A stretch of DNA of 58,929 bases, counting the filler, from an uncultured bacterium (lineage in GTDB: Bacteria > DAOPZR01), in the NCBI GenBank assembly GCA_964637655.1. It is 4 parts of 4 records of this genome, joined end to end, with 100 filler letters (N's around TTAATTAATTAA, not from the genome) between each part and the next. Parts side by side here need not be neighbours in the genome. Positions count along the whole stretch, not along the records: positions 44,387 to 58,929 come from CAZWUZ010000067.1; 3 more parts are not named here. One strand, given 5' to 3'. Positions within the stretch are counted from its first letter, which is position 1, and the number at the start of each line of letters is the position of its first letter. The translations under genes were made by a program, and so were the position numbers. Below are positions 14,831 through 58,929 of the stretch, piece after piece. A model generated the notes under the pieces. It was not told where the DNA came from. It worked only from the letters and a program-made list of their open reading frames with translations, and searched no databases.

Positions 14831-14930
14831 NNNNNNNNNNNNNNNNNNNNNNNNNNNNNNNNNNNNNNNNNNNNTTAATTAATTAANNNNNNNNNNNNNN
14901 NNNNNNNNNNNNNNNNNNNNNNNNNNNNNN
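14831..14930. other. Artificial contig linker
   Basis: N run, TTAATTAATTAA (stops in all six frames), N run. Confidence 0.98.
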
Positions 14931-27969: not shown

Positions 27970-28374
27970 CAGTAGTTCGGGCAGCCGCAACAGACCGCTG
28001 TATCGCGGACTGCCGCGCCGCGCCGCCGGAGTTCGCGCATCAGTATTTCGGGCAGCCGCGGCAGGCCGCTTTGCGCGCGGACTGCCGCGCCGCGCCGCCG
28101 GAGTTCACGCATCAGTATTTCGGGCAGCCGCGGCAGACCGCTTTGTTNNNNNNNNNNNNNNNNNNNNNNNNNNNNNNNNNNNNNNNNNNNNNNNNNNNNN
28201 NNNNNNNNNNNNNNNNNNNNNNNNNNNNNNNNNNNNNNNNNNNNNNNCGCCCCGCCGCCGGAGTTCACGCATCAGTATTTCGGGCAGCCGCGGCAGACCG
28301 CTTTGTTCGCGGACTGCCGCGCCCCGCCGCCGGAGTTCACGCATCAGTATTTCGGGCAGCCGCGGCAGACCGCT
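27966..28374. repeat. 72-bp tandem repeat spanning an assembly gap
   Basis: GCATCAGTATTTCGGGCAGCCGCGGCAGACCGCT recurs at 27966 and 28037 (both variant), 28109, 28269 and 28341; period 71-72. Confidence 0.9.
28148..28247. other. Scaffold gap (100 N)
   Basis: N run inside the tandem repeat. Confidence 0.97.
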
Positions 28375-29642: not shown

Positions 29643-29742
29643 NNNNNNNNNNNNNNNNNNNNNNNNNNNNNNNNNNNNNNNNNNNNTTAATTAATTAANN
29701 NNNNNNNNNNNNNNNNNNNNNNNNNNNNNNNNNNNNNNNNNN
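29643..29742. other. Artificial contig linker
   Basis: N-TTAATTAATTAA-N. Confidence 0.98.
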
Positions 29743-44286: not shown

Positions 44287-44386
44287 NNNNNNNNNNNNNN
44301 NNNNNNNNNNNNNNNNNNNNNNNNNNNNNNTTAATTAATTAANNNNNNNNNNNNNNNNNNNNNNNNNNNNNNNNNNNNNNNNNNNN
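44287..44386. other. Artificial contig linker
   Basis: N-TTAATTAATTAA-N. Confidence 0.98.
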
Positions 44387-44947
44387 CTTAGTGAATGTTC
44401 CTAAATGCTTTTCTGTTTTTGAATCCCAGAACAACTGAAATATCACATAAGCAGATTCTGGTTTTCCAAAACAGGCAGATGCCGTTCTGTGAAGCAGTTG
44501 GTACGGCAAATCCAGATATCCCTCGGCGCAAACACTCGAATATGGTTTTATGATGCTTATCCAATGCTCAAGAACACCCCGCCTGTTTTCACTATCACTT
44601 GTTTTCAGCCATTCTCCGATCGCTTCATATTTACTCTTGGCATATTCTGTGTATTTCGCTTCGATGGCGATTTTGCTTTTCCCCGTGATAATCATGACAT
44701 CCGACATTGATGATTTATTCTTTGGGGTCGATTTTGTTGGATATTCGAAGTACACATCGGCGTTTCCAGACCCTATGCCCAGTTCTTTGTCTATTATGCC
44801 CAATACCTTTCCTGTATTCTTCCAGTATTGCGCCAAAGGTACTGAAGAGGTTCGGATTGAATTGATTTTAGTTCCCGAGTAATAATCCAGTATCGATTCA
44901 TAGTCAGAACATTTTGGATTTCCCCAAAACACATTATTCAGTTTCAT
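44387..44947 (-). CDS. PD-(D/E)XK-fold nuclease-like protein (DUF6946-like), 3'-truncated
   Basis: FEY...SDVMI...IEAKYTE...YQLLHRTASA; low GC. Confidence 0.65.
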
Positions 44948-45025
44948 ATCTCCCCCTTTGGCGCATAACATAAACAGTGTAACATAAACAGTATCCGCGC
45001 TCAATATCATGCGTCATCAATGCTG

Positions 45026-45310
45026 TCATAAGTCGTGCATGGCTCTCAGCCGGCTGACCCGCCCGTTGCCTGCCGGCACCTGCGACAACAGTGTCTGCCA
45101 TAAAAGCGTGTTCACTCCGCCGGCTAACGCCCTGATGCATTTCGCCCAACCGGCAACCGGATCCGTGAAATGCGGATTGCGGTCATCGTACAGCAGGAGC
45201 CAACAGCATTCTCATCGAGTTCGTATGTTTCCGCGATAGTGTAAACCATTTGATATCCCGACCACAGCGAACACGTTTACGGTGAGAGCGGTGGCTGACC
45301 GGGGATGTTC
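45026..45310 (-). pseudogene. Decayed copy of the 3' third of gene 46435-47310
   Basis: Aligns with 46435-46720. Has an in-frame TAA (45277-45279) and a 1-nt deletion. Confidence 0.85.
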
Positions 45311-45366
45311 GATTAGCGCTCCGGGCGCAGCCGTTGGGCGGTGCCCAGCAGCGCGAAGTCGGCTTT

Positions 45367-46320
45367 TTACTCGAGGTTTTCATAGATCGTATTGATTACA
45401 TCGCCGACAATATTCTTAACCTTCTCTAATTCGATATATGCATAGACATCGTCATGGTTATGGGTAATTGTTTGGTATTTCCCGGCCAGTATTTTAAATA
45501 TTTTCTCCGAAGATCCTTCTGAACAAGGTTGAAATATTGCTTTGGGAATGGAAATGTTTGCTGTCTGAATCTGCCGCAACCCTCGTTGAGAGATCCATAT
45601 CGCAAAGCGTTCTGAAGCGCCGATAATATGGATAGCGATGCGTTTTTTTCCTCCTTTAATCTTCGCAATGGTTGACAAGGTTTCGACGCTTTCCAGAATG
45701 TTTTTCACTGACAATTTATCTTCTTTAAATGACTCGATTTGAGTATTCAGCCTTTCAACCGATGAGGACTTTATTTGATCCGGTTCTGAATCGTGGGTAG
45801 TAATGGTATACAGCACGTCATCGCCCAGGCAGAACTTGTTTATGGTGACAATCTTTATCTCTATTGTTTTCGTTTCTAAAAAGGTGACGAGCCGGTGCAA
45901 TTGGTGATGAACTTTGTCGCATACAATGATCAGAAGAGGTTCTTCGTCCTCGCATTCGCGGACGTCATTTGGCGAAACCTCGGGCGATAAAAACACCCAT
46001 CCCTTGGATTGCTTTATCTGTGAAAGATATACGGTATAGTCGAGAAGTTGTGCAATGATTTTTCTTCGGATTCCTTCATTGCTGATGATTTTACATTCGA
46101 CGAGTATGATTCTTCCTTCAGAATCAAGCAGCACGAAATCTGGCCTACCGGAATCCGTTTGGATTTCCCTTTTGTAGGCGACAATTTTGTTACCGAGTAA
46201 TCTCTTTTCGCTTCTAATCAGGTGTTCCAGGAGTACCTGGAGTGATTTCTCATCATCGTAAGCGGACGAGACTATGCGTGTCACTTCTGAATTATTAAAC
46301 CGGTAAAGATTCGTTTCCAT
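45367..46320 (-). CDS. NucS/RecB-like PD-(D/E)XK endonuclease
   Basis: EKSLQ...REIQTDSGRPDFVLLD...LVECK...AQLLDY; low GC. Confidence 0.75.
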   Translation of the reverse strand: METNLYRFNNSEVTRIVSSAYDDEKSLQVLLEHLIRSEKRLLGNKIVAYKREIQTDSGRPDFVLLDSEGRIILVECKIISNEGIRRKIIAQLLDYTVYLSQIKQSKGWVFLSPEVSPNDVRECEDEEPLLIIVCDKVHHQLHRLVTFLETKTIEIKIVTINKFCLGDDVLYTITTHDSEPDQIKSSSVERLNTQIESFKEDKLSVKNILESVETLSTIAKIKGGKKRIAIHIIGASERFAIWISQRGLRQIQTANISIPKAIFQPCSEGSSEKIFKILAGKYQTITHNHDDVYAYIELEKVKNIVGDVINTIYENLE

Positions 46321-46434
46321 TTGCTGCTCCCCTTTCGAAGTATACCATTTGACCTTCCAGAAGTTTTGGACATCTCACGCCAACGTGCCGGCGGTTGCAT
46401 CTCCTGACGCCAGTTCGAAGTGTCAGCAAGGCCG

Positions 46435-47310
46435 TCATAAACCGTGCTTCGCTCGCAGCCGGCTGATTCGCTGGTTGCCTGCCGGCACCTGCGACAATAG
46501 CGTCTGCCACGACAGCGTGTTTAATCCAGCGGCCAACACCTTGATACGTTCCGCCCAGCCGACAGCCGGATCCGCAAAATACGGATTGCGTTCATCGTAC
46601 AACAGAAGCCAAGCGGCACTTTGGTCGAGCGCGTATGTTTCCGCACAATTGTGGAACAGTTGATAACCCGACCACAGTGGACACGTTTGCAGGGAGAGCG
46701 GTGGCTGACCGGGGATGTTCATGACCCGCACTGCCGTTTCCCAGTAGCGGGCGCCGGTTGCACGATTCCTGCCCGGGGTTGCCATTGGACAGCCGAAATA
46801 CTGATCTGGACGAGCCCACCAGGTCCCATCGCAGCAGCCATCCGCGGGATACTTGCATGGGCTGAACCCCCGTTCAGTGAATTTTGCCTCAATAGTCAGG
46901 ATAACACGCCCATCCGGAGAGCGAATGATTCCGTCGAATTTTGTCCGGCCGTCAGTCACTTCTTCGAAAGCAATCGTGCAGTCGGAAACCACACGTTCCG
47001 GACAGAGAAGGTCAAGTCGCCCGCACTCCATAAGCACGCCCAGCACTTCAACAAAGAGTGCTTGCGATGACCTTGGGCTGTAGCAATGGTCCTGCCATGC
47101 ATCTGCAGGCATCCGGTCAGCTATCGGGCCAATACGTTCACGCATAAGCACAGCGCGTTCCGCGGGCGTCAATGCGCGCGAACGCGGGTGCCCGTTCGGG
47201 GCAACATCCGGATGTCCGCACTCCTGCCACAACCGGTACAACGTCTGCATATACCGCGCGTATGGCTCTTCTACTGTCTGGTCGATTTCTTTCGGAGTCA
47301 TCAGTTGCAT
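46435..47310 (-). CDS. PD-(D/E)XK-fold nuclease-like protein, Cys-rich (PGN_0703-like, tentative)
   Basis: SSQALF, TKFDG, IEAKFTE, RYWE, TCP and YQLFHN. Confidence 0.7.
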   Translation of the reverse strand: MQLMTPKEIDQTVEEPYARYMQTLYRLWQECGHPDVAPNGHPRSRALTPAERAVLMRERIGPIADRMPADAWQDHCYSPRSSQALFVEVLGVLMECGRLDLLCPERVVSDCTIAFEEVTDGRTKFDGIIRSPDGRVILTIEAKFTERGFSPCKYPADGCCDGTWWARPDQYFGCPMATPGRNRATGARYWETAVRVMNIPGQPPLSLQTCPLWSGYQLFHNCAETYALDQSAAWLLLYDERNPYFADPAVGWAERIKVLAAGLNTLSWQTLLSQVPAGNQRISRLRAKHGL

Positions 47311-47355
47311 CTGAACACCTCTCCGCTTGTATCAAAGATAGCACAATGCAGAATG

Positions 47356-47381
47356 AAGTCCAGCGTGCTGGAAATATCCCG
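47356..47381 (-). repeat. 26-bp element, inverted copy of 49904-49929
   Basis: 24 of 26 positions identical; lies upstream of a nuclease gene in both cases. Confidence 0.8.
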
Positions 47382-47425
47382 CTATAACCTGCATTGCATG
47401 CCGTTGCCTTACGGGCCAATGCATT

Positions 47426-48190
47426 TCACTCGACCTGCCGCTCAACATACCATGCGTCATCACGGTTGAAGCGTGTCAGATACCCACCCTGCATGTACCA
47501 GATCGACAACTGCGCATCGCCAGGTGCCGTAATTTCCGCCAGCCATGCCTGCACCTCGTCGCGGGTGAGCGCCAGTTCGCTATTGGCAATCAGCAGGCAC
47601 TGGACAGGCGCGCCTTCATGGCGCAGTTTATTGAGATCGGCCCGGGCTGCGGCGCGCATTTTCCTGAGCAGCGCGCCCCTGCTTGCCGCCGACGGGTTAT
47701 GGCCATGCAGGTCGTACTTCTTGCAGAGTTGCGCAAAATGAAAGTGCTTCACTTCTGCCATCGCCAGGTAGCGGGCGGCGCTCTCCGTGCGGCTGATATA
47801 GAAGCGCACCCGGGCATCCTTGTTGACCGCAACGGTATAAGGATGTTTCGCCAGCCAGGCGGGGTCGAGCAGCGCAAAATCTACGCTCCCGCTGGTCCAC
47901 CCGCGGTCTTCCCCGGTCTTCCGCCTGCCATACAAATGCAGCGCTCGCACAAATCCGTCGTCCCGCCGATAATGATTGATGGTTGCGTACTCGTTCAGCA
48001 GCGTGGGAAACGGAACGCCACCGAGCGTCGGTACCACGTCCGGCAAGTCCGTCGCCGCCACCCGCAGAAGTTGTGCGAACCGGTTATGCAGGTGGCGTTC
48101 TTCCAGCCATATTGTCGGCTGCCGGCAGAATTCCTCTGCCAGCGCCAGGCATGCACTCCGCATAATAGCTGAGCATCCCGGTGAGTTCAT
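47426..48190 (-). CDS. PD-(D/E)XK-fold nuclease-like protein
   Basis: ERHLH, EYAT, VDFALL, AEVK and DLNKL; similar layout to 52742-53350. Confidence 0.6.
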   Translation of the reverse strand: MNSPGCSAIMRSACLALAEEFCRQPTIWLEERHLHNRFAQLLRVAATDLPDVVPTLGGVPFPTLLNEYATINHYRRDDGFVRALHLYGRRKTGEDRGWTSGSVDFALLDPAWLAKHPYTVAVNKDARVRFYISRTESAARYLAMAEVKHFHFAQLCKKYDLHGHNPSAASRGALLRKMRAAARADLNKLRHEGAPVQCLLIANSELALTRDEVQAWLAEITAPGDAQLSIWYMQGGYLTRFNRDDAWYVERQVE

Positions 48191-48327
48191 GACAAGTATC
48201 TCCTCTGGTCAGTATTCCCGCGTTCCGAAACAAGCAGCATCTTCACCATCGACCATATAAAGGCCGCCAGGAAAACAACCTCGTACACCAGGCGCAGGAT
48301 TGTCCGCCGCATCGGGCTATATTCCAT
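48187..48327 (-). CDS. Small single-TM peptide (46 aa)
   Basis: MEYSPMRRTILRLVYEVVFLAAFIWSMVKMLLVSERGNTDQRRYLS. Fills the gap between the MBL and nuclease genes, with an ATGA overlap. Confidence 0.45.
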   Translation of the reverse strand: MEYSPMRRTILRLVYEVVFLAAFIWSMVKMLLVSERGNTDQRRYLS

Positions 48328-48330
48328 TCC

Positions 48331-49689
48331 CTATGCCGCTTCATGCCCGTCATCATTTTTCGCTTCCTGTTCTCCACTCGCCTGCCACACTTCCCCGTTG
48401 CGCAGGTGCCGGACCGGGCGCCCGAAAACTTCCATCTGCGTTGCCGCGGTCGTGTGGATGGGAATCACCTGCTTCGGCTGCATGGTCAGCACCAGGGTGC
48501 GCAGCGTCGCGCTGTCCGCATGGCCGCTGGTGTGACAGTGCCGCACCGTCGTCCCCTGCTGCTGCAGGTACTCGACGAACTTCCGTGACTGTTCCTCCTT
48601 GAGATAGCCGTCCCAGAGCGAGTAGATCAGCGTGCTCTGGCGCAGCCACTCCGGGTCATTCTCGCGCAGCAGCGCCGCGAGGTCTTTGCGCATCGAGGTA
48701 TGCACCGTCATCAGCACGTTCTTACGCTTTGCCAGGGCTGCGCGCTTCAACTGCACCCGCCGATACTTGAAAACCGTCGCGTCGAGCCCCAGTTCCTCCA
48801 CCTTGCGCCTGGTGATTGCCGCGGGGTAATAGACCAGGAGATTGAGGAAGGTGCCGCAGAGCGGGTCGGGCACACTCTTATGATGCTGATGCACCAGCGA
48901 GAGTTTCAGCGCGGTGTGCAGGTCAACCACCATGATGCGCCCCGACTGCTTCGCCGCGCTATACAGACTGCAGAGCCGGTCGATATTCTCCGATGAAACC
49001 GACACCAGCACCGGCCCCTCCGTCTCCCTGCAGATGCCCGCCAGTTCCTTGCGCAGTTTCAGTTCGTGCAGGCAATCGCTGCCGCGCCCGAGATTCGTCC
49101 CCTCGGTGATGAGGGCGTCCGGGCGGCGGCGCACCGTGCGCAGGAAGCGCTCGAAGAGGTTTCCCTTGGTCCCGTGCCTACGGAAGTCACCGGTGTAGAT
49201 AACGCGTTCACCGTTTGCCTCGATTTCGAAGGCATAGGCCTCGCACGCGGAGTGGTCCATGGCGTATGGCGTGATGGTGATATCGCCGATGAGCAGCGGC
49301 TGCTGGTCGCGCAGCAGGTTATAGGACGCGATGGTCAGGTTGCCGCGCGCCTCAATTAGTTCTTTCGTCAATGCTCCCGCGCAAACCGTGATGCCCGGGT
49401 CGGCATACTGCAGGAAACCGAAATGGTCGCCATGCGGATGCGAGATGAATACCGCATCGACCCGCTGTTGCTCTCCGCTGCCGGTATACAGCCCCGGCAC
49501 ATCCGGCAGCACTCCCTCCTGCACCAGTTGCTGCGCGCTCTTCCCTTTCAGGATGCGCGCATCGAACTTGCTGCCGTCCGCGGCGAGCAGCGGCATCCCC
49601 ATATCGAAGATGAGTCGCGTGCTCTCTGTGCTCACCTCCACGCAATTACCGCCGATTTCATTCGTCCCGCGATGGATACAAACCTTCAT
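48331..49689 (-). CDS. RNase J-like metallo-beta-lactamase / beta-CASP hydrolase
   Basis: EIGGNC, HPHGDH, DHSA, YTGDFR, EGT, HTSGHA and PIH; strong SD. Confidence 0.88.
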   Translation of the reverse strand: MKVCIHRGTNEIGGNCVEVSTESTRLIFDMGMPLLAADGSKFDARILKGKSAQQLVQEGVLPDVPGLYTGSGEQQRVDAVFISHPHGDHFGFLQYADPGITVCAGALTKELIEARGNLTIASYNLLRDQQPLLIGDITITPYAMDHSACEAYAFEIEANGERVIYTGDFRRHGTKGNLFERFLRTVRRRPDALITEGTNLGRGSDCLHELKLRKELAGICRETEGPVLVSVSSENIDRLCSLYSAAKQSGRIMVVDLHTALKLSLVHQHHKSVPDPLCGTFLNLLVYYPAAITRRKVEELGLDATVFKYRRVQLKRAALAKRKNVLMTVHTSMRKDLAALLRENDPEWLRQSTLIYSLWDGYLKEEQSRKFVEYLQQQGTTVRHCHTSGHADSATLRTLVLTMQPKQVIPIHTTAATQMEVFGRPVRHLRNGEVWQASGEQEAKNDDGHEAA

Positions 49690-49719
49690 GTTCTCCTCCT
49701 TTTCCTTCCTCTTTCCTGT

Positions 49720-49749
49720 ATATACTCCCGGCCTCGCCACCGCGTTGCA
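49720..49749 (-). promoter_or_regulatory. TGCAACG-N17-GTATAT motif (ECF-like promoter), copy 1
   Basis: Lies about 30 nt upstream of the MBL start codon. Confidence 0.65.
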
Positions 49750-49903
49750 ATATTCTGCAAAATGCCGTATATCGGTATAATTCTTCTGATGTCGCTTTTT
49801 GTAGCGATGTACGCCGTACCGCCTTCCCGGCCAAACCAGTGCCGCTTATGCGGTCCGGATTCCATACGACCGACCGACCAATCATGCTTTTCGCGCGCAA
49901 TAT

Positions 49904-49929
49904 CGGGATTTTTCCGGCACGCTGGACTT
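49904..49929 (+). repeat. 26-bp element, inverted copy of 47356-47381
   Basis: CGGGATTTTTCCGGCACGCTGGACTT followed by TATACT. Confidence 0.8.
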
Positions 49930-49994
49930 ATGGCAGTTGTGCGGTATACTCATCTCAGATACAGTCAGTACACTTCACCGCAAGGAGGATCACC

Positions 49995-50681
49995 ATGAGA
50001 TTCCCACAGCAATCCGACAGCCGCGGCAGTTTGCGCAACATCCAGTTGCTCATCAACCATCATCCCAAGCTCATCAATGAGGAAATCCGTAAACAGGTTC
50101 AGGATTGCATCACCATCGAGTGGGTGTCCCCGCTGTCCGCCGACGATCATGCCGAGTATCGTGACGCGGAGTTTATGCAGGTGCTTGGCCTCGGCAAAAA
50201 GGGCGCGGAAATGCCATTCCCCCTGCATGAGTTCTGGCCTAAACTCGGCCCGCAATGGGATGCCCTGGGCAGAACGAAACCGCGTCAGGGAATCTTCCTC
50301 GTCGAAGCGAAGGCGCATCTCGCCGAACTTGTCTCTTCCCCCTGCCGGGCCTGCGGCATGTCAAAAGAGTTGATCATGGACTCGTTCGCCACAGTCAAAG
50401 ATTATCTCAGCGTCGGGGATGAGGCGGACTGGGCCGGGCGATTCTATCAGTATACCAACCGCCTGGCGCATCTCTATTACCTGCGCGTGCTGAACCACAT
50501 CGACGCCCGTCTTATTTTCGTCTACTTCACCAATGACCGGTCGGTAGCAGAACCGACGACGCGGGAACAGTGGGAGGGCGCCATCCGCGTGATGGAGGAA
50601 TGTCTCGGCATCCCCCGCCAGCACCCGCTCCGCGCATACATCAGCGATATTTTCATTGACGTTGCGGCACTGCAGCAATGA
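49995..50681 (+). CDS. PD-(D/E)XK-fold nuclease-like protein
   Basis: FWPKLGPQWDALG, LVEAKAH and YQYTNRL; AGGAGG SD. Confidence 0.7.
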   Translation: MRFPQQSDSRGSLRNIQLLINHHPKLINEEIRKQVQDCITIEWVSPLSADDHAEYRDAEFMQVLGLGKKGAEMPFPLHEFWPKLGPQWDALGRTKPRQGIFLVEAKAHLAELVSSPCRACGMSKELIMDSFATVKDYLSVGDEADWAGRFYQYTNRLAHLYYLRVLNHIDARLIFVYFTNDRSVAEPTTREQWEGAIRVMEECLGIPRQHPLRAYISDIFIDVAALQQ

Positions 50682-50813
50682 ATCGCCGACGCGGCAACCG
50701 GCCGGGCTTGCTTAACCGGTTCAACACCATCCGGGCACAGTCGGAAAGTATATGTACAGCTGCAGGGCCCGGGATTACAATCGCAACTGCTGACAAATCC
50801 GGGAGGAAAGCAC

Positions 50814-50921
50814 ATGTATCAAGCACATAATCGTGCACCTGTTGAACGTGCCCTGGTCGAGGCAATCACGCTCGTCTGCAGGAATCCGGCGTCTTCTGGT
50901 AAAGGAAAGACGACACGCTAA
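50814..50921 (+). CDS. Possible 35-aa small ORF
   Basis: GGAGG SD followed by MYQAHNRAPVERALVEAITLVCRNPASSGKGKTTR. Confidence 0.3.
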   Translation: MYQAHNRAPVERALVEAITLVCRNPASSGKGKTTR

Positions 50922-50937
50922 CAGGTGAGGGGATAGT

Positions 50938-51642
50938 ATGGGATCCTTCGGCAACGTGCTGTATGGCAGCGAGTATCATCTGCTGCGCTGGATGGGACGG
51001 CACCGGGACGAACTGAATCGGCGCCTGCTGGCCCTGTTATCCGGCAGTCACACCACCATCGAATGGCAGGACTTCCATTTTCGCGATTCCACGCTCTCAC
51101 CCGACCGTGAAATCGAGGGTATAGAGTTTCTGCAGTCACACCCGGCATATGACCAGTTGCACACAGCGTGGCAGAATGAGTGGCCGCAAACCGGGAGTGC
51201 GCAATGCTGGGACGCCATCGGACAGGCAACTGGCGGCGACGGCGTGTGCTGGCTGCTGGTCGAGGCCAAGGCCGAGTTGACCGAGTTCGTTTCCAACTGC
51301 GGGGCAACAGGTGACAGTAAACAGCGCATTAGCCGCAACCTGGCTGCTTTCCGGGAACGCCACGCGATTACGGGCACCAGTGATTGGCTCAAACGACATT
51401 ATCAATACGCCAACCGGTTATGGTTTGTCGACTTTCTTGAGCGTCATCAGATACGGGCGGTACTGGTTGAGGTATTGTTTACCGGCGATATCCCTGTGCC
51501 GGGACGCCGGATTCCAGCAGGTGCGGCGGAATGGCGCGAAGCAATTGCCGGAATGCACGATTTCCTTGGTGTTGCCAATCACGCCTGGACACAGCATCAC
51601 GTCTGCCGCCTGCTTCTTCCCGTGACTGGCGGCAATGCGTAA
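50938..51642 (+). CDS. PD-(D/E)XK-fold nuclease-like protein, paralogue of 49995-50681
   Basis: WPQTGSAQCWDAIG, LVEAKAE and YQYANRL. Confidence 0.7.
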   Translation: MGSFGNVLYGSEYHLLRWMGRHRDELNRRLLALLSGSHTTIEWQDFHFRDSTLSPDREIEGIEFLQSHPAYDQLHTAWQNEWPQTGSAQCWDAIGQATGGDGVCWLLVEAKAELTEFVSNCGATGDSKQRISRNLAAFRERHAITGTSDWLKRHYQYANRLWFVDFLERHQIRAVLVEVLFTGDIPVPGRRIPAGAAEWREAIAGMHDFLGVANHAWTQHHVCRLLLPVTGGNA

Positions 51643-51695
51643 GATCTTCTCTGCCACCGGCGCAACTTAGTGCCAGTGCCGAATCCGGCTACGGT

Positions 51696-51768
51696 CAGCG
51701 TGTCGGCCTCGTACAAGAGGAGTACCCGACCGCCACCGCACTTGGCAAGCCGCGGCGCCAGCATCGGG
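51696..51768 (+). pseudogene. Internal fragment copy of gene 52742-53350
   Basis: 64 of 73 nt identical to 52889-52961; encodes QRVGLVQEEYPTATALGKPRRQH. Confidence 0.85.
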
Positions 51769-51844
51769 TGATTAGTGCTACAGCGTATGTTCACGGGGAG
51801 AAGCAAGTGTCTGTCGCGATAATCTGATGCGGAAGGGGGTCCTC

Positions 51845-52738
51845 ATGCAATCGACCAGAATAACTGGCGGGTGGCATACGGCACAACGCAACCCGTTGTA
51901 TCGCGCCGGTTCATTGAGCGACGCGGAAGGACGTGCCATACACTGGCATTCGCCTGACAGCCCGCACTCGTCGCAGATTTTCTGCATTTCCGCGTTCGGT
52001 TCGCTGCGTGGCCTGCCGGACCGTGACCGCATCCTGGCACAACTCTTCGCCGGCATCCTTCCGCGCGGCGCAGCATGCGGTCCTTGGCATGTGCAGCCGG
52101 AATTCCACGATCCTTCCCGCCTCGGTGAGACCAGTGCCGGGCAGCCATCCGTTATTGACGTGTTCTGTCATTCCGCCGATGCTGCCGTTTGCCTCGAAGC
52201 GAAATTCCTTACTGATGCCCGGCATGGTTTTGGCGGCTGCAGTCAGTGCGGGCGCGGGTATTGCGCGGGTTATTACGGGGTAGGGTCAGACCTCAAAACC
52301 GGCACTGACGCACACTGCCGCCTTGCCATAGGCGACGGCAAGCGCACTCCGCGCCGCTACTGGGAAGCAGGACGTCAGTATTTCCGCGCTGCGGTATACA
52401 CCTCGCAGCGCAGCGGCGAAACCTGCCCGTTTGCCGGCCCGAATTTTCAATTGATGCGCAATTTTCTATTCGCCGCAAAGAGCGGGCTACCGCATTTCGG
52501 CCTGCTCGTCATCGTCCCGCGAACGCTGATGGCATCCTGCGCAGAACAGCTGGAGATATTCCATACGACCATCCTGCGCCCGGAACATCAGTCCCGGGTT
52601 GCACTTGTCACCTACGAGACTGTGATCAGCTACCTGCGTGAATCAGCTTGTGACGCCAGTAGGCAATTGGGTGATTTTCTCCGAACCGGTCTGCATGAAA
52701 CTATTCACAAAGACAGCTGTTCCCGTAAAGGAGAATAG
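51845..52738 (+). CDS. PD-(D/E)XK-fold nuclease-like protein, Cys-rich (PGN_0703-like, tentative)
   Basis: SSQIFC, SVIDV, LEAKF, RYWE, TCP and FQLMRN. Confidence 0.7.
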   Translation: MQSTRITGGWHTAQRNPLYRAGSLSDAEGRAIHWHSPDSPHSSQIFCISAFGSLRGLPDRDRILAQLFAGILPRGAACGPWHVQPEFHDPSRLGETSAGQPSVIDVFCHSADAAVCLEAKFLTDARHGFGGCSQCGRGYCAGYYGVGSDLKTGTDAHCRLAIGDGKRTPRRYWEAGRQYFRAAVYTSQRSGETCPFAGPNFQLMRNFLFAAKSGLPHFGLLVIVPRTLMASCAEQLEIFHTTILRPEHQSRVALVTYETVISYLRESACDASRQLGDFLRTGLHETIHKDSCSRKGE

Positions 52739-52741
52739 TAG

Positions 52742-53350
52742 ATGAAGATCATCGAGAACGTTATCGCTGAGTTCTGCCGCGATTTTGTCCGGCACCCGTA
52801 TTACTGCTACACCGAACACGGTATACACGCCGCATTCTACGCCAATCTTGCGACAGCGCTGCCGAATAAATATGCCGTGTGGAACGACCAGCGTGTCGGC
52901 CTCGTGCAGAAGGAGTATCCGACCGCCACCGCGCTCGGTAAGCCGCGACGCCAGCATTGGGATATCGCCGTGCTGGCCAACCCGTTGCGCCCGGTGAAAT
53001 CCCGGCCGGCCGGTGCACCGGAATATGACTACCTGCATCTCGACGCTGCCATCGAATTCTCACTGAATGAGGGAGAAAACCACCTGACCGATGACCTGCA
53101 GCGCCTCGAGCAGGCCGAGTATGTCGCCAACCCATATATCGTCCAACTCTACCGCCTGTCGCCTGCCGGGGCGCGCTTCTCCGGACGTGACCGTTCCCCG
53201 GATAGCAGCCACATCGTTCCTCTTGAATCCGTGGTTCGCCTGTCAAAGAAGTACCGTGCGACGGTATTTTACGCGCGTGCTGATGCAGCAGACAGCACGT
53301 CAAACGGCATTTGGCGTATTGCCGCGAGCCGAACGAGCACAATCAGCTGA
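52742..53350 (+). CDS. PD-(D/E)XK-fold nuclease-like protein (E-x-S variant)
   Basis: TEHGIH, KEYPT, WDIAVL, AIEFSLN and DDLQRL. Confidence 0.6.
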   Translation: MKIIENVIAEFCRDFVRHPYYCYTEHGIHAAFYANLATALPNKYAVWNDQRVGLVQKEYPTATALGKPRRQHWDIAVLANPLRPVKSRPAGAPEYDYLHLDAAIEFSLNEGENHLTDDLQRLEQAEYVANPYIVQLYRLSPAGARFSGRDRSPDSSHIVPLESVVRLSKKYRATVFYARADAADSTSNGIWRIAASRTSTIS

Positions 53351-53405
53351 TTTCTGCCTGCCTTTATCTTTCCCCCGAGGCTCTCCGCTATCCCGTGTCG
53401 CCCGG

Positions 53406-54185
53406 TCAGCAGCCACCTGGAGCGCTCATGCCGTAGCGCGCACTGAGCCATGCGCGCAGTTCATCATCGCAGGCGGCGATGATCTGCTGCCAGTAGACCA
53501 CCCTGCACTTCTGCCGCAACGACACATCGCGCAGGCAGGCAACAGTCGTTGTGTAGCGGGCGACAAGATCGTCGCGTCGTTCATCGCAAAGCAGCACATG
53601 GGCCCGGCCGTGCTGCATTGACGCGAGCAGGTTCCTGATCACCTGGTAATTGTCGTATTCTTCTCCTGCCCGGGGGAGCCGGTCGACATGAAACGCTGCC
53701 TGCAGGCCGTCGTAACTTTCCACCACTTCAGCGCGTTTGCGAGTAAAGTCGGTTTCCGTCAGTTTCGCCTCGCAGAACACGCCCGGAACAGCTAGGTCGA
53801 TTTCCGTCGCGTCTTTGCACCCGCCGGCAATGGACACGCCCGCGAGGTAGCCGAAGGTTATCTCAGACAGGTCGCTACCCAGCAATTCCTGAACACCCTT
53901 CCATGTTGCCACGCGGGGATGGCAGAAGATGTTCATGAGCAGCGCATCGCTGCTGTTTGATGATTGCATTTCTTTGGCCCCGGGGACATTCTGATGCAGT
54001 TTTTCCGTGCGCATGTGCCATTGCGGGTTGCGGGTAATGGTTTCCCATACGGTCGGATGGAATGAATCTGCCACCTTGTCGAACAGCACCGCCGAGGCAT
54101 GCGTGGCGTCAACCGGCATCGGTATGCTCTTCGCGTATGTCACCGCTGCATCCCGTATACTTTGTTTCTGCTCTTGCACGTTCAT
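53406..54185 (-). CDS. PD-(D/E)XK-fold nuclease-like protein (PGN_0703-like, tentative)
   Basis: SSDALLMNIF, TEIDL, CEAKLTETDF and YQVIRN; AGGAGG SD. Confidence 0.7.
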   Translation of the reverse strand: MNVQEQKQSIRDAAVTYAKSIPMPVDATHASAVLFDKVADSFHPTVWETITRNPQWHMRTEKLHQNVPGAKEMQSSNSSDALLMNIFCHPRVATWKGVQELLGSDLSEITFGYLAGVSIAGGCKDATEIDLAVPGVFCEAKLTETDFTRKRAEVVESYDGLQAAFHVDRLPRAGEEYDNYQVIRNLLASMQHGRAHVLLCDERRDDLVARYTTTVACLRDVSLRQKCRVVYWQQIIAACDDELRAWLSARYGMSAPGGC

Positions 54186-54203
54186 TGTGCACCTCCTGCC
54201 GAC

Positions 54204-54233
54204 ATATACGGCCAGGAACACGCAGGCGTTGCA
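54204..54233 (-). promoter_or_regulatory. TGCAACG-N17-GTATAT motif, copy 2
   Basis: Upstream of the start at 54185. Confidence 0.65.
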
Positions 54234-54256
54234 TTTTTTTCACCTTCAGCGTTGCC

Positions 54257-54286
54257 TGCAACGCCTGTCCAAACAGACGAGTATAT
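54257..54286 (+). promoter_or_regulatory. TGCAACG-N17-GTATAT motif, copy 3
   Basis: Upstream of the FlhA-fragment gene, back-to-back with copy 2. Confidence 0.65.
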
Positions 54287-54351
54287 ACGTGGAGGAGAAA
54301 GAGACAAAGGCAAGAACAGCGCTATGCGCGCCTCATCAAGAGGGGGATTGT

Positions 54352-54813
54352 ATGGCTGACGCGAGAAAATTAAACGAATGGCTCACGGATGAACTGGAAA
54401 TATCACTCAGTCCGCTGCTGGTACTGCTGGTCGATCACGATGCCGGGGGCGACCTGCTCGAGCGGGTAGTGCGGATGCGGCAAGCCCTGCAGGATATCCT
54501 GCTGCACGATGTTCCGCCAATCCGCATACGCGACCGCAAGGAACTGCACCCGCATGAATATGCGTTCCACTTCAACGGCCGGTTGCAGGGGAGCGATTTC
54601 GCGTATCCTGACCGGTTGCTGGCCTCGGGCACACCACAGCAGCTTGCCGGCCTGCACGGCAAGGCCGTCGCGCATCCCGTCACCGGCACCCCGGGCGTGT
54701 GGATTGCGCCCGGCGAGCGTATGCGGGCCGTTCAGACGGGCTGCACTGTCGAACCCCCGTCAGAACTGATTGTCAGCCATTTCCAGTCAATCTACGAAGC
54801 AGAGAGCCACTAA
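54352..54813 (+). CDS. Stand-alone FlhA/FHIPEP cytoplasmic-domain fragment
   Basis: LEI...LVD..AGGDLLERV..MR....VPPIRIRD..L.P.EY...PDRLLA...PVTG.PGVWI...G.TV...IVSH matches the FlhA cytoplasmic D1-D2 pattern. No TM domain. Confidence 0.75.
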   Translation: MADARKLNEWLTDELEISLSPLLVLLVDHDAGGDLLERVVRMRQALQDILLHDVPPIRIRDRKELHPHEYAFHFNGRLQGSDFAYPDRLLASGTPQQLAGLHGKAVAHPVTGTPGVWIAPGERMRAVQTGCTVEPPSELIVSHFQSIYEAESH

Positions 54814-54839
54814 CAGCATCCGCCCGTCAAGGCGATTTC

Positions 54840-55541
54840 CTATTTTCGCGGCGGCATCTGATTGGCGTTGAGCAGGCAGATGCTGGCCTGCTGTTTCAGC
54901 CATTGCCGGAATTCCTTGGCCGCCGGGGTGCCGACGGTGCCGATCGCTTCGGCGATATCCTCCCAGGTCAGGACAAAGGTCGGGATAATGGTCCCGCCGT
55001 CGGTTGCAGCATTGCGTTCAAGCCAGTCGCAGAGGCGGTTCAACTGCGAACCTTTCTGCCGGCGTGCCTTGGCATTACTGACCGCTTGCCACTTCTTTTC
55101 GGCAACGACAAGACAATGGCCAGCATGGTCGATTGCCTGGCTGGCCTGTATCCCCTCAACCCGCTCAATTTCCAGCAGGATATCCGCGCAAAAACTCCAG
55201 TCGGTATTGGCTTTTGCTTTGATGGTCAGCAGGGTATTCCCCTTTTGGTTCCATACCGCGACATCACAATACTCACCCGCATCTGTTTCCGCCCGAACAA
55301 TGTCATGGAGGTTATTATCAAACGACACCACCAATTTTTCGTCAGCCGCAAACAGGCCGGACAGGTCTTCGGCAACACCCACGGTATCCGGTAGCACCTG
55401 CTGCAACCGGTTACGCACCTGCAGAAAGCTTTTCGTCCATTCGGCATCGCTGAAGATTGCGGTGAACACCTTGGCATACAAATTTCGCTCGTCCCGATTC
55501 CAATTTGAAGGATGCCGCGGATTCGTTGAGAAAGTCGCCAT
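54840..55541 (-). CDS. PD-(D/E)XK-like protein with K in place of the catalytic E
   Basis: ERNL...EYCDVAVW...LLTIKAK...LTWEDI. Confidence 0.55.
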   Translation of the reverse strand: MATFSTNPRHPSNWNRDERNLYAKVFTAIFSDAEWTKSFLQVRNRLQQVLPDTVGVAEDLSGLFAADEKLVVSFDNNLHDIVRAETDAGEYCDVAVWNQKGNTLLTIKAKANTDWSFCADILLEIERVEGIQASQAIDHAGHCLVVAEKKWQAVSNAKARRQKGSQLNRLCDWLERNAATDGGTIIPTFVLTWEDIAEAIGTVGTPAAKEFRQWLKQQASICLLNANQMPPRK

Positions 55542-55672
55542 GATACAACCTCCTTTGCCGTCAGTTTTTTACCTGTCTGCAACCATAACGCAAGGGCAGC
55601 GTGCTCCAGTTCATGATCATGCGTAATCGTACATATTTTCACTTGTTACTGCAATTACACGAATTCGATGAT

Positions 55673-58015
55673 TCACGCCCCGCATCCTGTCACTGACTTG
55701 AGGAAGTAATCGCTCTCGGATTCTCGCCGCTCCTGCCATGCCCGGGCATAGGCCTCGGGATGGTATGTGTTCAGCCAGGCGGTGCGATACGCCAGCAGTG
55801 CATACGCAACGCCATGAGCCTTGCACTGAACCCATGTGCTTCTCTGCGCAAGGTATTGGAACATACCGGCAAGTTGCTCGTGAGCTATGCCGTTCTTCAT
55901 GCCACAGGCGATAAACTCGTCCCTTATGTCGGTCTGCTCCCTGTCGCCATGGCGCAGTTTTTTCCGAAACTGTTCCGCTGCAAGCAGGGAACTGCCCATC
56001 AACCGCGCCAATACCTGTATCAGTTGCTCCCGGTAGATAAGCACACCGTTCGTTTCCGCCAGTTCCATGGCGATGGCAGGATGACCCGGAGCGATGACAG
56101 ACCCGCCACACATCTGCTGCAGGCATTTGTTGGTTGTGCCGTTCGCCAGCAGTTCACTCCGTTGCAGCGAGATGAACGCAGCCAGTTCAGTGAAATTGCG
56201 TGGCGGGTACAAGGCCAGGTATTCTCGGGCCTGTTCTGCACCAACCAGAAACACCCCCTCGGTGCACGTCGTCGGCAGAGCGCGATAGACCTCCGCATCA
56301 TCCGGCGATAACGACCTCAATTCCTCGACGCTCATTCCGATTTCAGCAAGGCAGCGCCTGATTGCCGTCAGGGTTGTTAGCGCCAGCACGTTGACATTCA
56401 CCAACGCCAGCGGATTTTCATTGACCTTTTGCAGGTGTTCGAAGCAATCCCGGTCGTAGTGGAGCACCCGCTCTCCGGTTTCACGACAGCGTAATGGCAC
56501 GATTTCAGACAACGTACGCCCGGCAATGACATTGCTGGAATGCCAATAGGTCGTGCGGCGCACTATCCCCTCAAGGCGGCAGGCGTAATCGATCCACGCG
56601 CGCAGATGTTCATCAGCGCCATTGGCAATTGCCGCACACTGCGGCACGCTGATGACTGCTTCCGGTAAACGCATGCCTGCCGGGATTGCTTTCGCCACTT
56701 CCCCGGCAATCTCCGTTGGGACTCCCATAACCTTCGCGACATCACGCAGTATCTGTTTGGACCTGTTGATTGTCCGTGCCGACATGTGCGCCACCCGGCT
56801 ACACCCGTATAAGTTGCTAATCGTGTCGAATACTTCGTCATGCCGGGCCGCGTCAACATCAATATCAACGTTTGGCAGCCCATTGCCTGCCAGGAATTGT
56901 TCGGGCTGCAGGCCATAACGCAGCGGGTCGATTTCCGTGATGCGCAGCAGATAATTGACGATGCTACCGCCTGCGGCACCCCGCCCCGGCCCGACCAGTA
57001 TCCCCCTCCGGCGCAACGCCACAACAATATCCTTTACCATCAGCAGATAGCCGGCGCCGGCAGCACTGAGCATTGCCAGTTCCTGCTCGAAACGCTTTCG
57101 GGGTGCCGGTTCATTATCGACGTACAAGCGCGGCAGCTCCTCCAGGCAGAACGCACGTAGCGTGGCAATGCTGATATCTGCATGCGATTTATCCGGCTGA
57201 GGCATTACCCGATGAACCCGGCAGCGCTCTGCAATAGTTGTCGTGTTTGCTATTGCCTCTGGCACATCGTGGAATAGCTCATGCATTTCCGCCGCACTGC
57301 GCAGATGGTAGGTTCCGGTTTCCGCACGACATGCAACGCCATCAAGCAATGCGTAATGAACCGGTAACAACGCGTTATCATCCGGTGTTATGCAGCGGAC
57401 GATAGCAGCAGCCACCAGCGGGATGCCCGTCCGTTCATGCAGGAAAAGCAACCCGGCATTCATGTCCTGTTCGCCGGGCACGCCATTGCGCGTCATTTCG
57501 AGATAGAAATCATCCCTGCCGAAATGATCGCGATATGCCACCGCTGCTGTTTCCGCCGCTGCCATGTTGCCGTCGAGGATATGCCGCGCCACCTCGCCAC
57601 CAAGGCCGCCGCTCAGGGCAATCAGTCCTTCGGCATATTGTTGCAATACCCTGCGCCTGACTACCAGACGTTCCCCGCGTACCAGATTGTCTTCGTGCGA
57701 TACCAGTTGTAGCAGGTTGGCATAGCCGGTCGCATTTTCCACCAGCAGTACCAGGGTCAGGGTTTCTCCGTTTGGCGCATCCATCACCTGCACTTCGCAG
57801 CCGGTCAAAACATTGATCCCCGTTTCGACCGACTGCTGTGACAGGATAAATGCGCCATGGAGATCACCGGTGTCAGTCACAGCGATATGGCCCATCCCCT
57901 GCGCTGTCACCGCCTGCAGCAGTGGCCCTTTCTCACCCGGTTTACCCACACGGCATATGCCGCGGTACGGTGAATATTCCGTCTGCACATGCAAATGCAC
58001 TATGCTTTTCTTCAT
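55673..58015 (-). CDS. Degenerate, C-terminally truncated DNA polymerase III alpha (DnaE)-like protein
   Basis: HLHVQTEYS, GCE, GYANL, VGPGRG, ITEIDPL, DID, IYREQ and KAHGVAYALLAYRTAWL. About 780 aa, with catalytic motifs altered. Confidence 0.85.
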   Translation of the reverse strand: MKKSIVHLHVQTEYSPYRGICRVGKPGEKGPLLQAVTAQGMGHIAVTDTGDLHGAFILSQQSVETGINVLTGCEVQVMDAPNGETLTLVLLVENATGYANLLQLVSHEDNLVRGERLVVRRRVLQQYAEGLIALSGGLGGEVARHILDGNMAAAETAAVAYRDHFGRDDFYLEMTRNGVPGEQDMNAGLLFLHERTGIPLVAAAIVRCITPDDNALLPVHYALLDGVACRAETGTYHLRSAAEMHELFHDVPEAIANTTTIAERCRVHRVMPQPDKSHADISIATLRAFCLEELPRLYVDNEPAPRKRFEQELAMLSAAGAGYLLMVKDIVVALRRRGILVGPGRGAAGGSIVNYLLRITEIDPLRYGLQPEQFLAGNGLPNVDIDVDAARHDEVFDTISNLYGCSRVAHMSARTINRSKQILRDVAKVMGVPTEIAGEVAKAIPAGMRLPEAVISVPQCAAIANGADEHLRAWIDYACRLEGIVRRTTYWHSSNVIAGRTLSEIVPLRCRETGERVLHYDRDCFEHLQKVNENPLALVNVNVLALTTLTAIRRCLAEIGMSVEELRSLSPDDAEVYRALPTTCTEGVFLVGAEQAREYLALYPPRNFTELAAFISLQRSELLANGTTNKCLQQMCGGSVIAPGHPAIAMELAETNGVLIYREQLIQVLARLMGSSLLAAEQFRKKLRHGDREQTDIRDEFIACGMKNGIAHEQLAGMFQYLAQRSTWVQCKAHGVAYALLAYRTAWLNTYHPEAYARAWQERRESESDYFLKSVTGCGA

Positions 58016-58070
58016 CTTGCCCTCAGCCATTTGGACCGTCTTATGCTCCTGAATCAACCGCCTCTGTTTC

Positions 58071-58190
58071 CTATAGTAATGGCCAGCAGGCGCTTGGGGC
58101 GGCACGAAACACCAGCCATGCGCACAGCACAATATTGGCGACGAATTCGATGCCAATGGGCGTGTAGTTGATGTGTTTGAGCATTTCCAT
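58071..58190 (-). CDS. Small hydrophobic peptide (39 aa) upstream of the DnaE-like gene
   Basis: AGGAGG SD followed by MEMLKHINYTPIGIEFVANIVLCAWLVFRAAPSACWPLL. Confidence 0.5.
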   Translation of the reverse strand: MEMLKHINYTPIGIEFVANIVLCAWLVFRAAPSACWPLL

Positions 58191-58218
58191 GATCGCCTCC
58201 TGTCCGTACTCTATGGAT

Positions 58219-58248
58219 ATATACCGTCACCGGGCGCCTGGCGTTGCA
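58219..58248 (-). promoter_or_regulatory. TGCAACG-N17-GTATAT motif, copy 4
   Basis: Upstream of the small peptide and DnaE-like genes. Confidence 0.65.
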
Positions 58249-58268
58249 CACAATTTCTTGCCGCCTGT

Positions 58269-58298
58269 TGCAACGAATCCCGCCTGAGGGGCGTATAT
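58269..58298 (+). promoter_or_regulatory. TGCAACG-N17-GTATAT motif, copy 5
   Basis: Back-to-back with copy 4; points to the remnant at 58370 and the gene at 58530. Confidence 0.6.
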
Positions 58299-58369
58299 TG
58301 CCTTAGAGACCGGGCGATCTGCAGTAATATCTGTCAATAGTACTACCGGATCACGTCGTTGCTTGCGGT

Positions 58370-58477
58370 GCAATTGCCGCCGAGGGGACTCCGGCAGCCA
58401 GGGAATTCCAGCAATGGCTGAAACACCAGTCCGGCATCTGCCAGCTCGGTTGCAGCCAGATGCCGCCAAAGAAATGA
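58370..58477 (+). pseudogene. Inverted, diverged copy of the C-terminus of gene 54840-55541
   Basis: Encodes AIAAEGTPAAREFQQWLKHQSGICQLGCSQMPPKK*, versus AIGTVGTPAAKEFRQWLKQQASICLLNANQMPPRK*. No in-frame ATG back to the upstream TAA at 58325. Confidence 0.8.
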
Positions 58478-58529
58478 GATAGCACGTGGAGCAAAACAAC
58501 ACGCGCGTACAAATTCAGGAGGATTGCCA

Positions 58530-58904
58530 ATGAGTGTATTCAAGCCAAAGAGTGGAGAAACAGTAGCGACAGGAAATGCGGAAATGCGCGCAGCAGCATT
58601 GCTCACCGATGAACGTTTGCGTCAGTGTGCATTCTGCCCGGCTGCCGGTGAGGATTATCAGACACTGCAACGCCTGGTTGAACGCCATGCAGACATTATC
58701 TACCTCGACATCGAGATGCAGTATCTGTTCAACGCGTATGGTGCTGAGTCCATCGGCGGATATCGGGTCATCCGGCGGGAATTGACAACGCTTGACGTCG
58801 TGTCAGGGCGCAACAAAAACTGTGACAGCGAGTACATTGCTGCCATTGATCAGAAGATCCAGAAAACGTATTCACCTGATCTCCGGCCCGTTTTTATCCA
58901 CTAG
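58530..58904 (+). CDS. Hypothetical protein
   Basis: AGGAGG SD; 124-aa ORF. Confidence 0.65.
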   Translation: MSVFKPKSGETVATGNAEMRAAALLTDERLRQCAFCPAAGEDYQTLQRLVERHADIIYLDIEMQYLFNAYGAESIGGYRVIRRELTTLDVVSGRNKNCDSEYIAAIDQKIQKTYSPDLRPVFIH

Positions 58905-58929
58905 GCTCTTGATTCCTGCCATAGTATAG

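Follow-up and report, generated by a model that had tools for sequence, protein, structure and literature searches.

What keeps a DNA polymerase gene open once the residues that make it a polymerase have gone? The question is raised by an open reading frame (ORF), here called Q, which lies on the minus strand at 55673..58015 of a 58,929-nucleotide stretch of DNA from an uncultured bacterium (DAOPZR01; assembly GCA_964637655.1), referred to below as the window. Q encodes a 780-amino-acid (aa), C-terminally truncated, catalytically degenerate homologue of the DnaE1-type alpha subunit of DNA polymerase III (Pol III alpha). On balance, we think it probable that Q is a translated, non-catalytic descendant of DnaE1 that is kept under purifying selection and acts by binding. 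The window joins at least four contigs into one pseudo-molecule, with N runs carrying TTAATTAATTAA six-frame-stop spacers at 14831-14930, 29643-29742, and 44287-44386 and a plain 100-N gap at 28148-28247. Only 44387-58929 (14,543 nucleotides, nt) is physically linked to Q, and the sequence to the left of 44387 is unusable as its context; the protein database gives precisely this length for the longest contig bearing the protein.

Extent, fold, and active sites of Q

The frame runs for 780 codons and a stop without an internal stop, and its matches to Pfam domains and PDB sequences confirm the original prediction of an intact DnaE homologue. Longer in-frame start options are available at ATG 58030 and TTG 58156; the homologues start at the position of MKKSIVHLH. 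The promoter motif claimed for the gene fared no better than chance, as it amounts to one 9/12 sigma-70-like match (58156-58129), and two matches were found against 3.2 +/- 1.8 in shuffled sequence. In the Pfam scan of the protein, Q matched PHP over aa 7-176 (57488..57997, minus strand; E 9e-31), DNA_pol3_alpha over aa 286-528 (E 5e-45), and DNA_pol3_finger over aa 548-704 (55904..56374, minus strand; E 3e-20), and no HhH (HHH_6), OB, tau-binding, or C-terminal domain was found. A phmmer search of PDB sequences paired aa 5-759 of Q with E. coli Pol III alpha (residues 6-785; E 1e-90). Among the NCBIfam models, the DnaE1 equivalog NF004226 ranked first with 465.6 bits, below its cut-off of 1002, and the score on the DnaE2 model NF004225 was lower still (269.9 bits, cut-off 939). 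The view that Q is not a DnaE2 is thus borne out, and its sister protein P0003 (1177 aa) passes the DnaE1 cut-off with 1306 bits.

The last codon of Q corresponds to residue 807 of P0003, of which residues 2-807 were aligned by tblastn. The C-terminal tail past the YRTAWL helix (55673..55747, minus strand) can still be aligned with P0003 into the helix that opens its following domain, after which the stop comes. Pfam and tblastn agree here with the earlier description of a protein that ends just past a YQTAWLK-like motif and has no HhH, OB, clamp-binding, or tau-binding region. Q is a homologue of DnaE1-type Pol III alpha that ends just past the fingers. Its AlphaFold2 (AF2) model, computed from a 47-sequence alignment, has a mean predicted local distance difference test score (pLDDT) of 87.8 and a predicted TM score (pTM) of 0.85, and Foldseek matched it with a query TM score of 0.87 to the Taq enzyme (2hpi) and of 0.79 to the E. 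coli enzyme (2hnh). The model is that of a whole Pol III alpha fold from PHP through palm and thumb to fingers, confidently predicted, with aa 768-780 of the tail disordered (pLDDT <50).

We counted residues per column in a MAFFT alignment of Q and 119 homologues from the protein search, using E. coli numbering where stated. As had been predicted, the third catalytic Asp motif, KxDxLGL, reads NVNVLAL in Q (aa 540-546; 56378..56398, minus strand); K is present in 118 of the 119 homologues and D and G in all of them. E. coli D555, the third catalytic Asp, and K553 are both Asn in Q (N542 and N540), and the loss of D555 holds in either of the two alignment registers considered below. GRGA (aa 344-347; 56975..56986, minus strand) replaces the triphosphate-binding GRGS, whose Ser is found in 119/119 homologues, ERF has become EQF (R373Q; R in 117/119), and NPER is gone, with AGN in its place and a deletion of two residues. 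All three of these changes had been read from the sequence beforehand, and all are present in the alignment. In the fingers, RPGP is changed to RSEL, FQLE to FLVG, and YQEQ to YREQ, the residues of RPGP and the Q and E of FQLE each being found in 119/119 homologues; a further change turns GFNKSH into VQCKAH. Where LYRPG was said to have become LQRSE, the loss of RPGP stands and the Y-to-Q change does not count as a loss, as P0003 also reads LQRPG. The substitutions D542N, K540N, and S347A occur in none of the 119 homologues, and the same is true of D382N in the favoured register.

The other two catalytic positions lie on the palm strand N382-V-D384-I-D386-V-D388 (56852..56872, minus strand), which matches D401-F-D403-V-D405 of E. 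coli in a register that is ambiguous by two residues. In the register given by both HMMER and MAFFT, D401 corresponds to N382 and D403 to D384, and the first catalytic Asp reads Asn. An alternative register, which places the two-residue deletion after the palm strand and not before it, keeps both Asps as D384 and D386, and its mean BLOSUM62 score is ~6 units lower (41.5 vs. 47.9). The earlier statement that two palm Asps survive is right in the alternative register and wrong in the HMMER/MAFFT one. Judged from the alignment, one or two of the three catalytic carboxylates are lost from Q, depending on the register; Asp is found at all three positions (D401, D403, and D555) in each of the 119 other homologues.

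Seven of the nine metal ligands in the PHP domain are replaced (H11Q, D18R, H49T, H87T, C137G, D205I, and H207R), and H9 and E74 are kept. The PHP motif changes described earlier were all recovered: HxH reads HVQ (H in 118/119 homologues), LLDG reads PYRG (D in 118/119), TDH reads TDT (H in 117/119), and NDxHY reads AIVRC (D in 116/119 and H in 117/119). Over the whole protein, there are 117 columns with a conservation of 98% or more; Q matches 75 of them (64%), and the other 119 proteins match 100% at the median and 86% at the least.

Since Q lacks at least one carboxylate and the Lys next to it, the Ser and Arg that bind the triphosphate, and seven ligands of PHP, catalysis appears very unlikely. 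One could still imagine an active, unusual polymerase or nuclease with a shifted or non-canonical active site, given that the alternative palm register keeps equivalents of D401 and D403 (D384/D386, plus D388) at the cost of only those ~6 units, that R345, R619, K732, and H734 are retained, and that two PHP ligands are still present. Such an enzyme would, however, have Asn unambiguously in place of D555 and K553, would lack the GRGS serine, the NPER arginine, RPGP, FQLE, and seven of nine PHP ligands, and would work without a clamp-binding, HhH, or OB region; we regard it as highly improbable.

Selection on the reading frame

A gene with so many losses might be a decaying pseudogene, a truncated dnaE relic whose frame is still open by chance. 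The surroundings fit that explanation, as four or more other genes have left fragments on the contig (45029-45318, 51696-51785, 58370-58474, and an FlhA-like piece at 54007-54813) and the FlhA relic shows frameshifting indels in a relative from landfill; furthermore, 36% of the near-invariant residues are gone from Q, across all domains, and Q is an orphan in protein searches. Against it stands the frame itself, with its 780 open codons. When Q was subjected to random point mutation, it was stop-free in 15 of 300 runs at 10% amino-acid change and in 0 of 300 runs at 20% and again at 36%.

Comparison of populations also argues against decay. Four wastewater runs of one study, which may be its source, carry the sequence of Q nearly identically, and landfill runs X5 and X6 of another study carry a relative that is 92-95% identical, its pieces being ~5-8% different. 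The X5 pieces listed over Q cover 55648-56021 (22 differences), 56256-56870 (50), and 57627-58254 (49), and the X6 pieces cover 56089-56323 (11) and 57376-57622 (11), all without gaps. In contrast, the only indels listed on the 14.5-kb contig relative to the landfill sequence, two bases out at 54234 and one base in at 54341, both fall in the adjacent FlhA-like relic. For the test of codon positions, 40 of the 474 differences were listed, 21 of them in Q (57670-57868). Fifteen of the 21 fall on codon position 3, four on position 1, and two on position 2 (binomial P = 4e-4), and they amount to 8 amino-acid changes in 71 codons, with a ratio of nonsynonymous to synonymous rates (dN/dS, NG86) of 0.21 and a dS of 0.27. 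Because of the third-position bias, the low dN/dS, the lack of gaps in the listed pieces, the 0/300 open neutral runs, and the full predicted fold, Q shows signs, in a small sample, of a retained protein under purifying selection. This supports the earlier view of a retained gene, and we consider a relic left open by chance unlikely.

Several observations weigh against the reading of Q as a retained binding protein. The dN/dS estimate comes from 21 differences in 71 codons, or 9% of Q, on one contig with a depth of 4.7, and the landfill relative is seen in pieces, with its whole frame and its active-site residues lying beyond the listed differences. A single lineage is known, represented by two populations in metagenomes from two habitats, and there was no RNA run among the public runs listed with the Q sequence. 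Q lies in a region where genes decay, surrounded by several gene fragments and the frameshifted FlhA relic. The AF2 confidence is driven by the canonical DnaEs in the alignment. The losses hit all domains, each of which keeps 45-65% of its columns that are at least 90% conserved, and the DNA-binding thumb and fingers rank lowest (45% and 47%), which means that DNA binding by Q is not assured. Finally, a search of PADLOC-DB 2.0 with Q and nine neighbouring ORFs gave no family at E <= 0.01.

Relatives and descent

The protein nearest to Q is P0003, with 36% identity, and no closer relative was found among 5.8 billion clustered proteins of near lengths. A search at shorter lengths gave a best match of 39%, and the Logan fragments of the landfill relative were absent from it. 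With Q as the query, a search of metagenome contigs picked up two ordinary dnaE genes of full length (26-28%; L081 and L082) and nothing else, a search of viral contigs returned no match, and plasmid and phage collections held nothing above 31%. P0003 has canonical residues throughout, those of PHP included, and shares with Q an insertion after the CRV/CRI motif. In a FastTree tree the two are sisters (support 0.995), with terminal branches of 1.89 substitutions per site for Q and 0.44 for P0003, the median being 0.09. As no relatives of P0003 above 47% were found in the genome contigs of species representatives, its lineage appears to lie outside these.

The sister relationship, the end of the alignment at residue 807, and the long branch therefore point to descent of Q from a full-length DnaE1 that was truncated within the helix at the start of the next domain and then evolved fast. 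In the scenario that we propose, a P0003-like full-length dnaE copy would have lost everything past the fingers. Q would then have evolved ~4 times faster than its sister, losing most of the PHP ligands and the catalytic and deoxynucleotide-binding residues of the polymerase, and would have been kept as an open, foldable PHP-palm-thumb-fingers protein.

Natural short forms of DnaE do exist. P0062 (788 aa), a metagenome-assembled genome record named DNA polymerase III subunit alpha, and P0099 (773 aa) end, like Q, just past the fingers and within a few residues of its end. Similar length is thus found among truncated homologues, but the same substitutions are not: unlike Q, these two keep D382, D384, D542, GRGS, and RPGP (Q numbering), and the DnaE1 model gives them 921 and 895 bits versus 466 for Q. 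Nor are they close kin, as they fall outside the Q clade in the tree; within the set of 119 homologues, none diverges more than these two. P0062 and P0099 are unrelated DnaE1 forms with partly degenerate PHP sites, and they may form a short class of their own that is not yet described or else be the halves of genes that were split. When 301 genomes of a single phylum were surveyed with P0062, the dnaE frames recovered were essentially all full-length.

The proximity of these ends could also mean that Q represents only the N-terminal half of a polymerase whose C-terminal part is encoded separately. Its truncation point lies, we assume, near the split site of cyanobacterial DnaE. The intein-split cyanobacterial DnaE is a known split polymerase, mentioned in one survey (PMC3919608). 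However, a tblastn search with P0003 found no remnant of residues 808-1177 on the 14.5-kb contig (best match E 0.66), and the contig thus offers no split partner for the C-terminus. Pfam detected no intein family in Q, only the three polymerase domains, and adding a C-terminal part would not bring back the lost catalytic residues. We give very little credence to a split enzyme.

Retention of dead polymerases is known from other families, and eukaryotic Pol epsilon has an inactive PolB-like module. Inactive PHP domains, as well as inactive members of the Y family and of PolX, appear in surveys of bacterial polymerases (PMC12926913, available part). ImuB, of the Y family, is like Q a polymerase homologue retained without its catalytic residues and is thought to be a binding or scaffold subunit, but it belongs to another polymerase family and keeps a clamp-binding motif and defined partners, whereas a clamp-binding region is missing from Q. 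Among prokaryotic PolX proteins, those devoid of polymerase activity similarly combine a degenerate polymerase site with retention of the protein; according to the available parts of two studies, their PHP exonuclease stays active, which explains the retention, whereas the PHP domain of Q is degenerate (PMC9226535, PMC12926913). DnaE2 (ImuC), too, is an additional DnaE-type copy that is not essential and whose PHP site is degenerate, but its polymerase catalytic residues and its C-terminal domains are kept. DnaE1 itself (E. coli 2HNH, Taq 2HPI; NF004226) has the same PHP-palm-thumb-fingers architecture and fold; in contrast to it, Q has no beta-binding/HhH, OB, or tau-binding region and has lost one or two catalytic Asps, K553, the GRGS Ser, and the NPER Arg.

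A C-family group without a polymerase site is not described in the available parts of two large surveys (PMC12926913, PMC3919608), although the supplementary tables of the former could list one, and our literature searches returned no paper on a catalytically inactive C-family polymerase homologue. What would be new here is a C-family pseudo-polymerase, of which we found no described case. As Q is without both active sites and the replisome-docking tail and still appears to be under selection, it suggests that the C-family fold can be reused, and it provides a concrete protein for the study of DNA or partner binding.

Neighbouring genes and possible role

With catalysis very unlikely and a full-length, foldable protein under selection, Q would be expected to act by binding, and the cleft formed by palm, thumb, and fingers would be the obvious binding surface. 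A candidate partner is encoded 131 nt downstream, on the same strand, by a 233-aa PD-(D/E)xK-like gene (54840..55541, minus strand). An exhaustive HMMER search of 1.84 billion representatives gave a small, uncharacterised family of 50 proteins at E <= 1e-3, mostly 190-240 aa long and sharing the motifs ERNLY, SFDN, GE-x-x-D, and (I/V)EAK in an overall pattern E..D...(I/V)EAK. Searches of metagenome and viral contigs gave nothing for this family, and a search of its profile against PDB sequences gave no matches. The AF2 model of the protein has a pLDDT of 90.3, and its structure matches are weak and nearly all to proteins of the restriction-endonuclease fold (Foldseek E at least 0.016; VIA-align Z of 7.6 for a Upx nuclease domain and 7.3 for NucS, values graded as middling). 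At codon 108 (55218-55220), the motif Glu is changed to Lys (IKAK, K108); the Glu is present in 19/19 other aligned members and in P0243, the most similar fragment (57% identity). The protein encoded beside Q may thus lack catalysis as well. Its comparison with the landfill relative listed 19 differences, 11 of them at codon position 3, with a dN/dS of ~0.15.

Q is bracketed by inverted copies of this gene, with the intact copy on one side and a decayed, internally deleted one on the other (58256..58490, plus strand), the latter recognized from repeats and from a tblastn match of 63% over 35 aa. A 25-nt inverted repeat, 55519-55543 / 58256-58280, coincides with the endpoints of a join in a landfill contig, which connects 58254 to 55545 on opposite strands. 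A second landfill contig keeps the order of the window and has 107 other bases in place of 55545-55647. In the landfill relative, sequence of the 233-aa gene adjoins Q at both ends. Either the segment with Q is inverted in a part of the landfill population or, at the site of the decayed remnant, the relative possesses another complete 233-aa gene in inverse orientation; either way, Q would seem to travel between inverted copies of that gene.

Because the two genes are physically coupled, the arrangement suggests a joint function of Q and the 233-aa protein. A possible form of it, which we put forward tentatively and with considerable doubt, is that Q holds DNA in its retained cleft and has the 233-aa PD-(D/E)xK-family protein as its putative partner, in a nuclease-rich, rapidly changing accessory or defence-like region. 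The original prediction imagined Q as a decoy or sensor for phage replisome inhibitors or as a scaffold for nucleases, and these ideas are speculation. In a more specific version, Q would mimic the Pol III alpha of the host and serve as a dead, clamp-independent bait (decoy or guard) or as a DNA-end sensor, signalling to the 233-aa protein in a defence island; we think this unlikely. If it were true, Q would be the first C-family pseudo-polymerase and would bring a new sensing principle into bacterial immunity.

The claim that nucleases are adjacent to Q is correct, with PD-(D/E)xK genes lying on the same contig. Predicted nuclease genes form a dense run in both orientations over 44387-53350, and altogether the contig has at least eight predicted PD-(D/E)xK-type genes and a gene for an RNase J-like nuclease of the metallo-beta-lactamase/beta-CASP type (48331-49740). 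Three of the genes are of the REase-ARP family (PF22558; 46435-47310, 51827-52738, and 53406-54221), a term that a literature search found in no paper. Two others, at 49839-50681 and 50938-51642, are paralogues with 31% identity, and further ORFs have weak PD-(D/E)xK, DUF6946/REase-like, or NucS-like matches or D...ExK motifs read by eye. Among the main ORFs scanned on the contig there were no imuA/imuB or PolY/RecA partners, and the window gave no Rfam family.

The contig shows signs of repeated duplication, recombination, and decay. Intergenic fragments at 45013-45310, 51691-51785, and 58370-58490 are ~63-86% identical, as DNA or protein, to intact genes of the contig, their sources being 46435-47310, 52742-53350, and 54840-55541. 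The repeats are duplicated pieces of genes and do not form the regular cassette repeat of an integron, although no search aimed at attC sites was made. The FlhA/SctV-type export-gate (FHIPEP) piece at 54007-54813 (plus strand) is an internal fragment that matches profile positions 258-467 of 657 (E 2.5e-22) and overlaps the start of an REase-ARP gene on the opposite strand; given its indels in the landfill relative, it looks like a decaying relic. As Q is set in a nuclease-rich cluster that appears to rearrange rapidly, a role in conflict with mobile elements is plausible but unproven.

The GC content at third codon positions (GC3) ranges from 0.41 to 0.79 in the genes of the contig, Q having 0.63, and the two leftmost genes have a GC content of ~41%. 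The metagenome-assembled genome has a GC content of 68%, and the contig with Q is lower in GC. Since three genes of the preceding contig have a GC3 of 0.86-0.90, the contig with Q would be a foreign island or else one assigned to the wrong bin. Just upstream of Q, a putative hydrophobic ORF of 39 codons with a strong AGGAGG ribosome-binding site is found at 58071..58190 (minus strand); it gave no significant family match and lies within the segment that moves together with Q.

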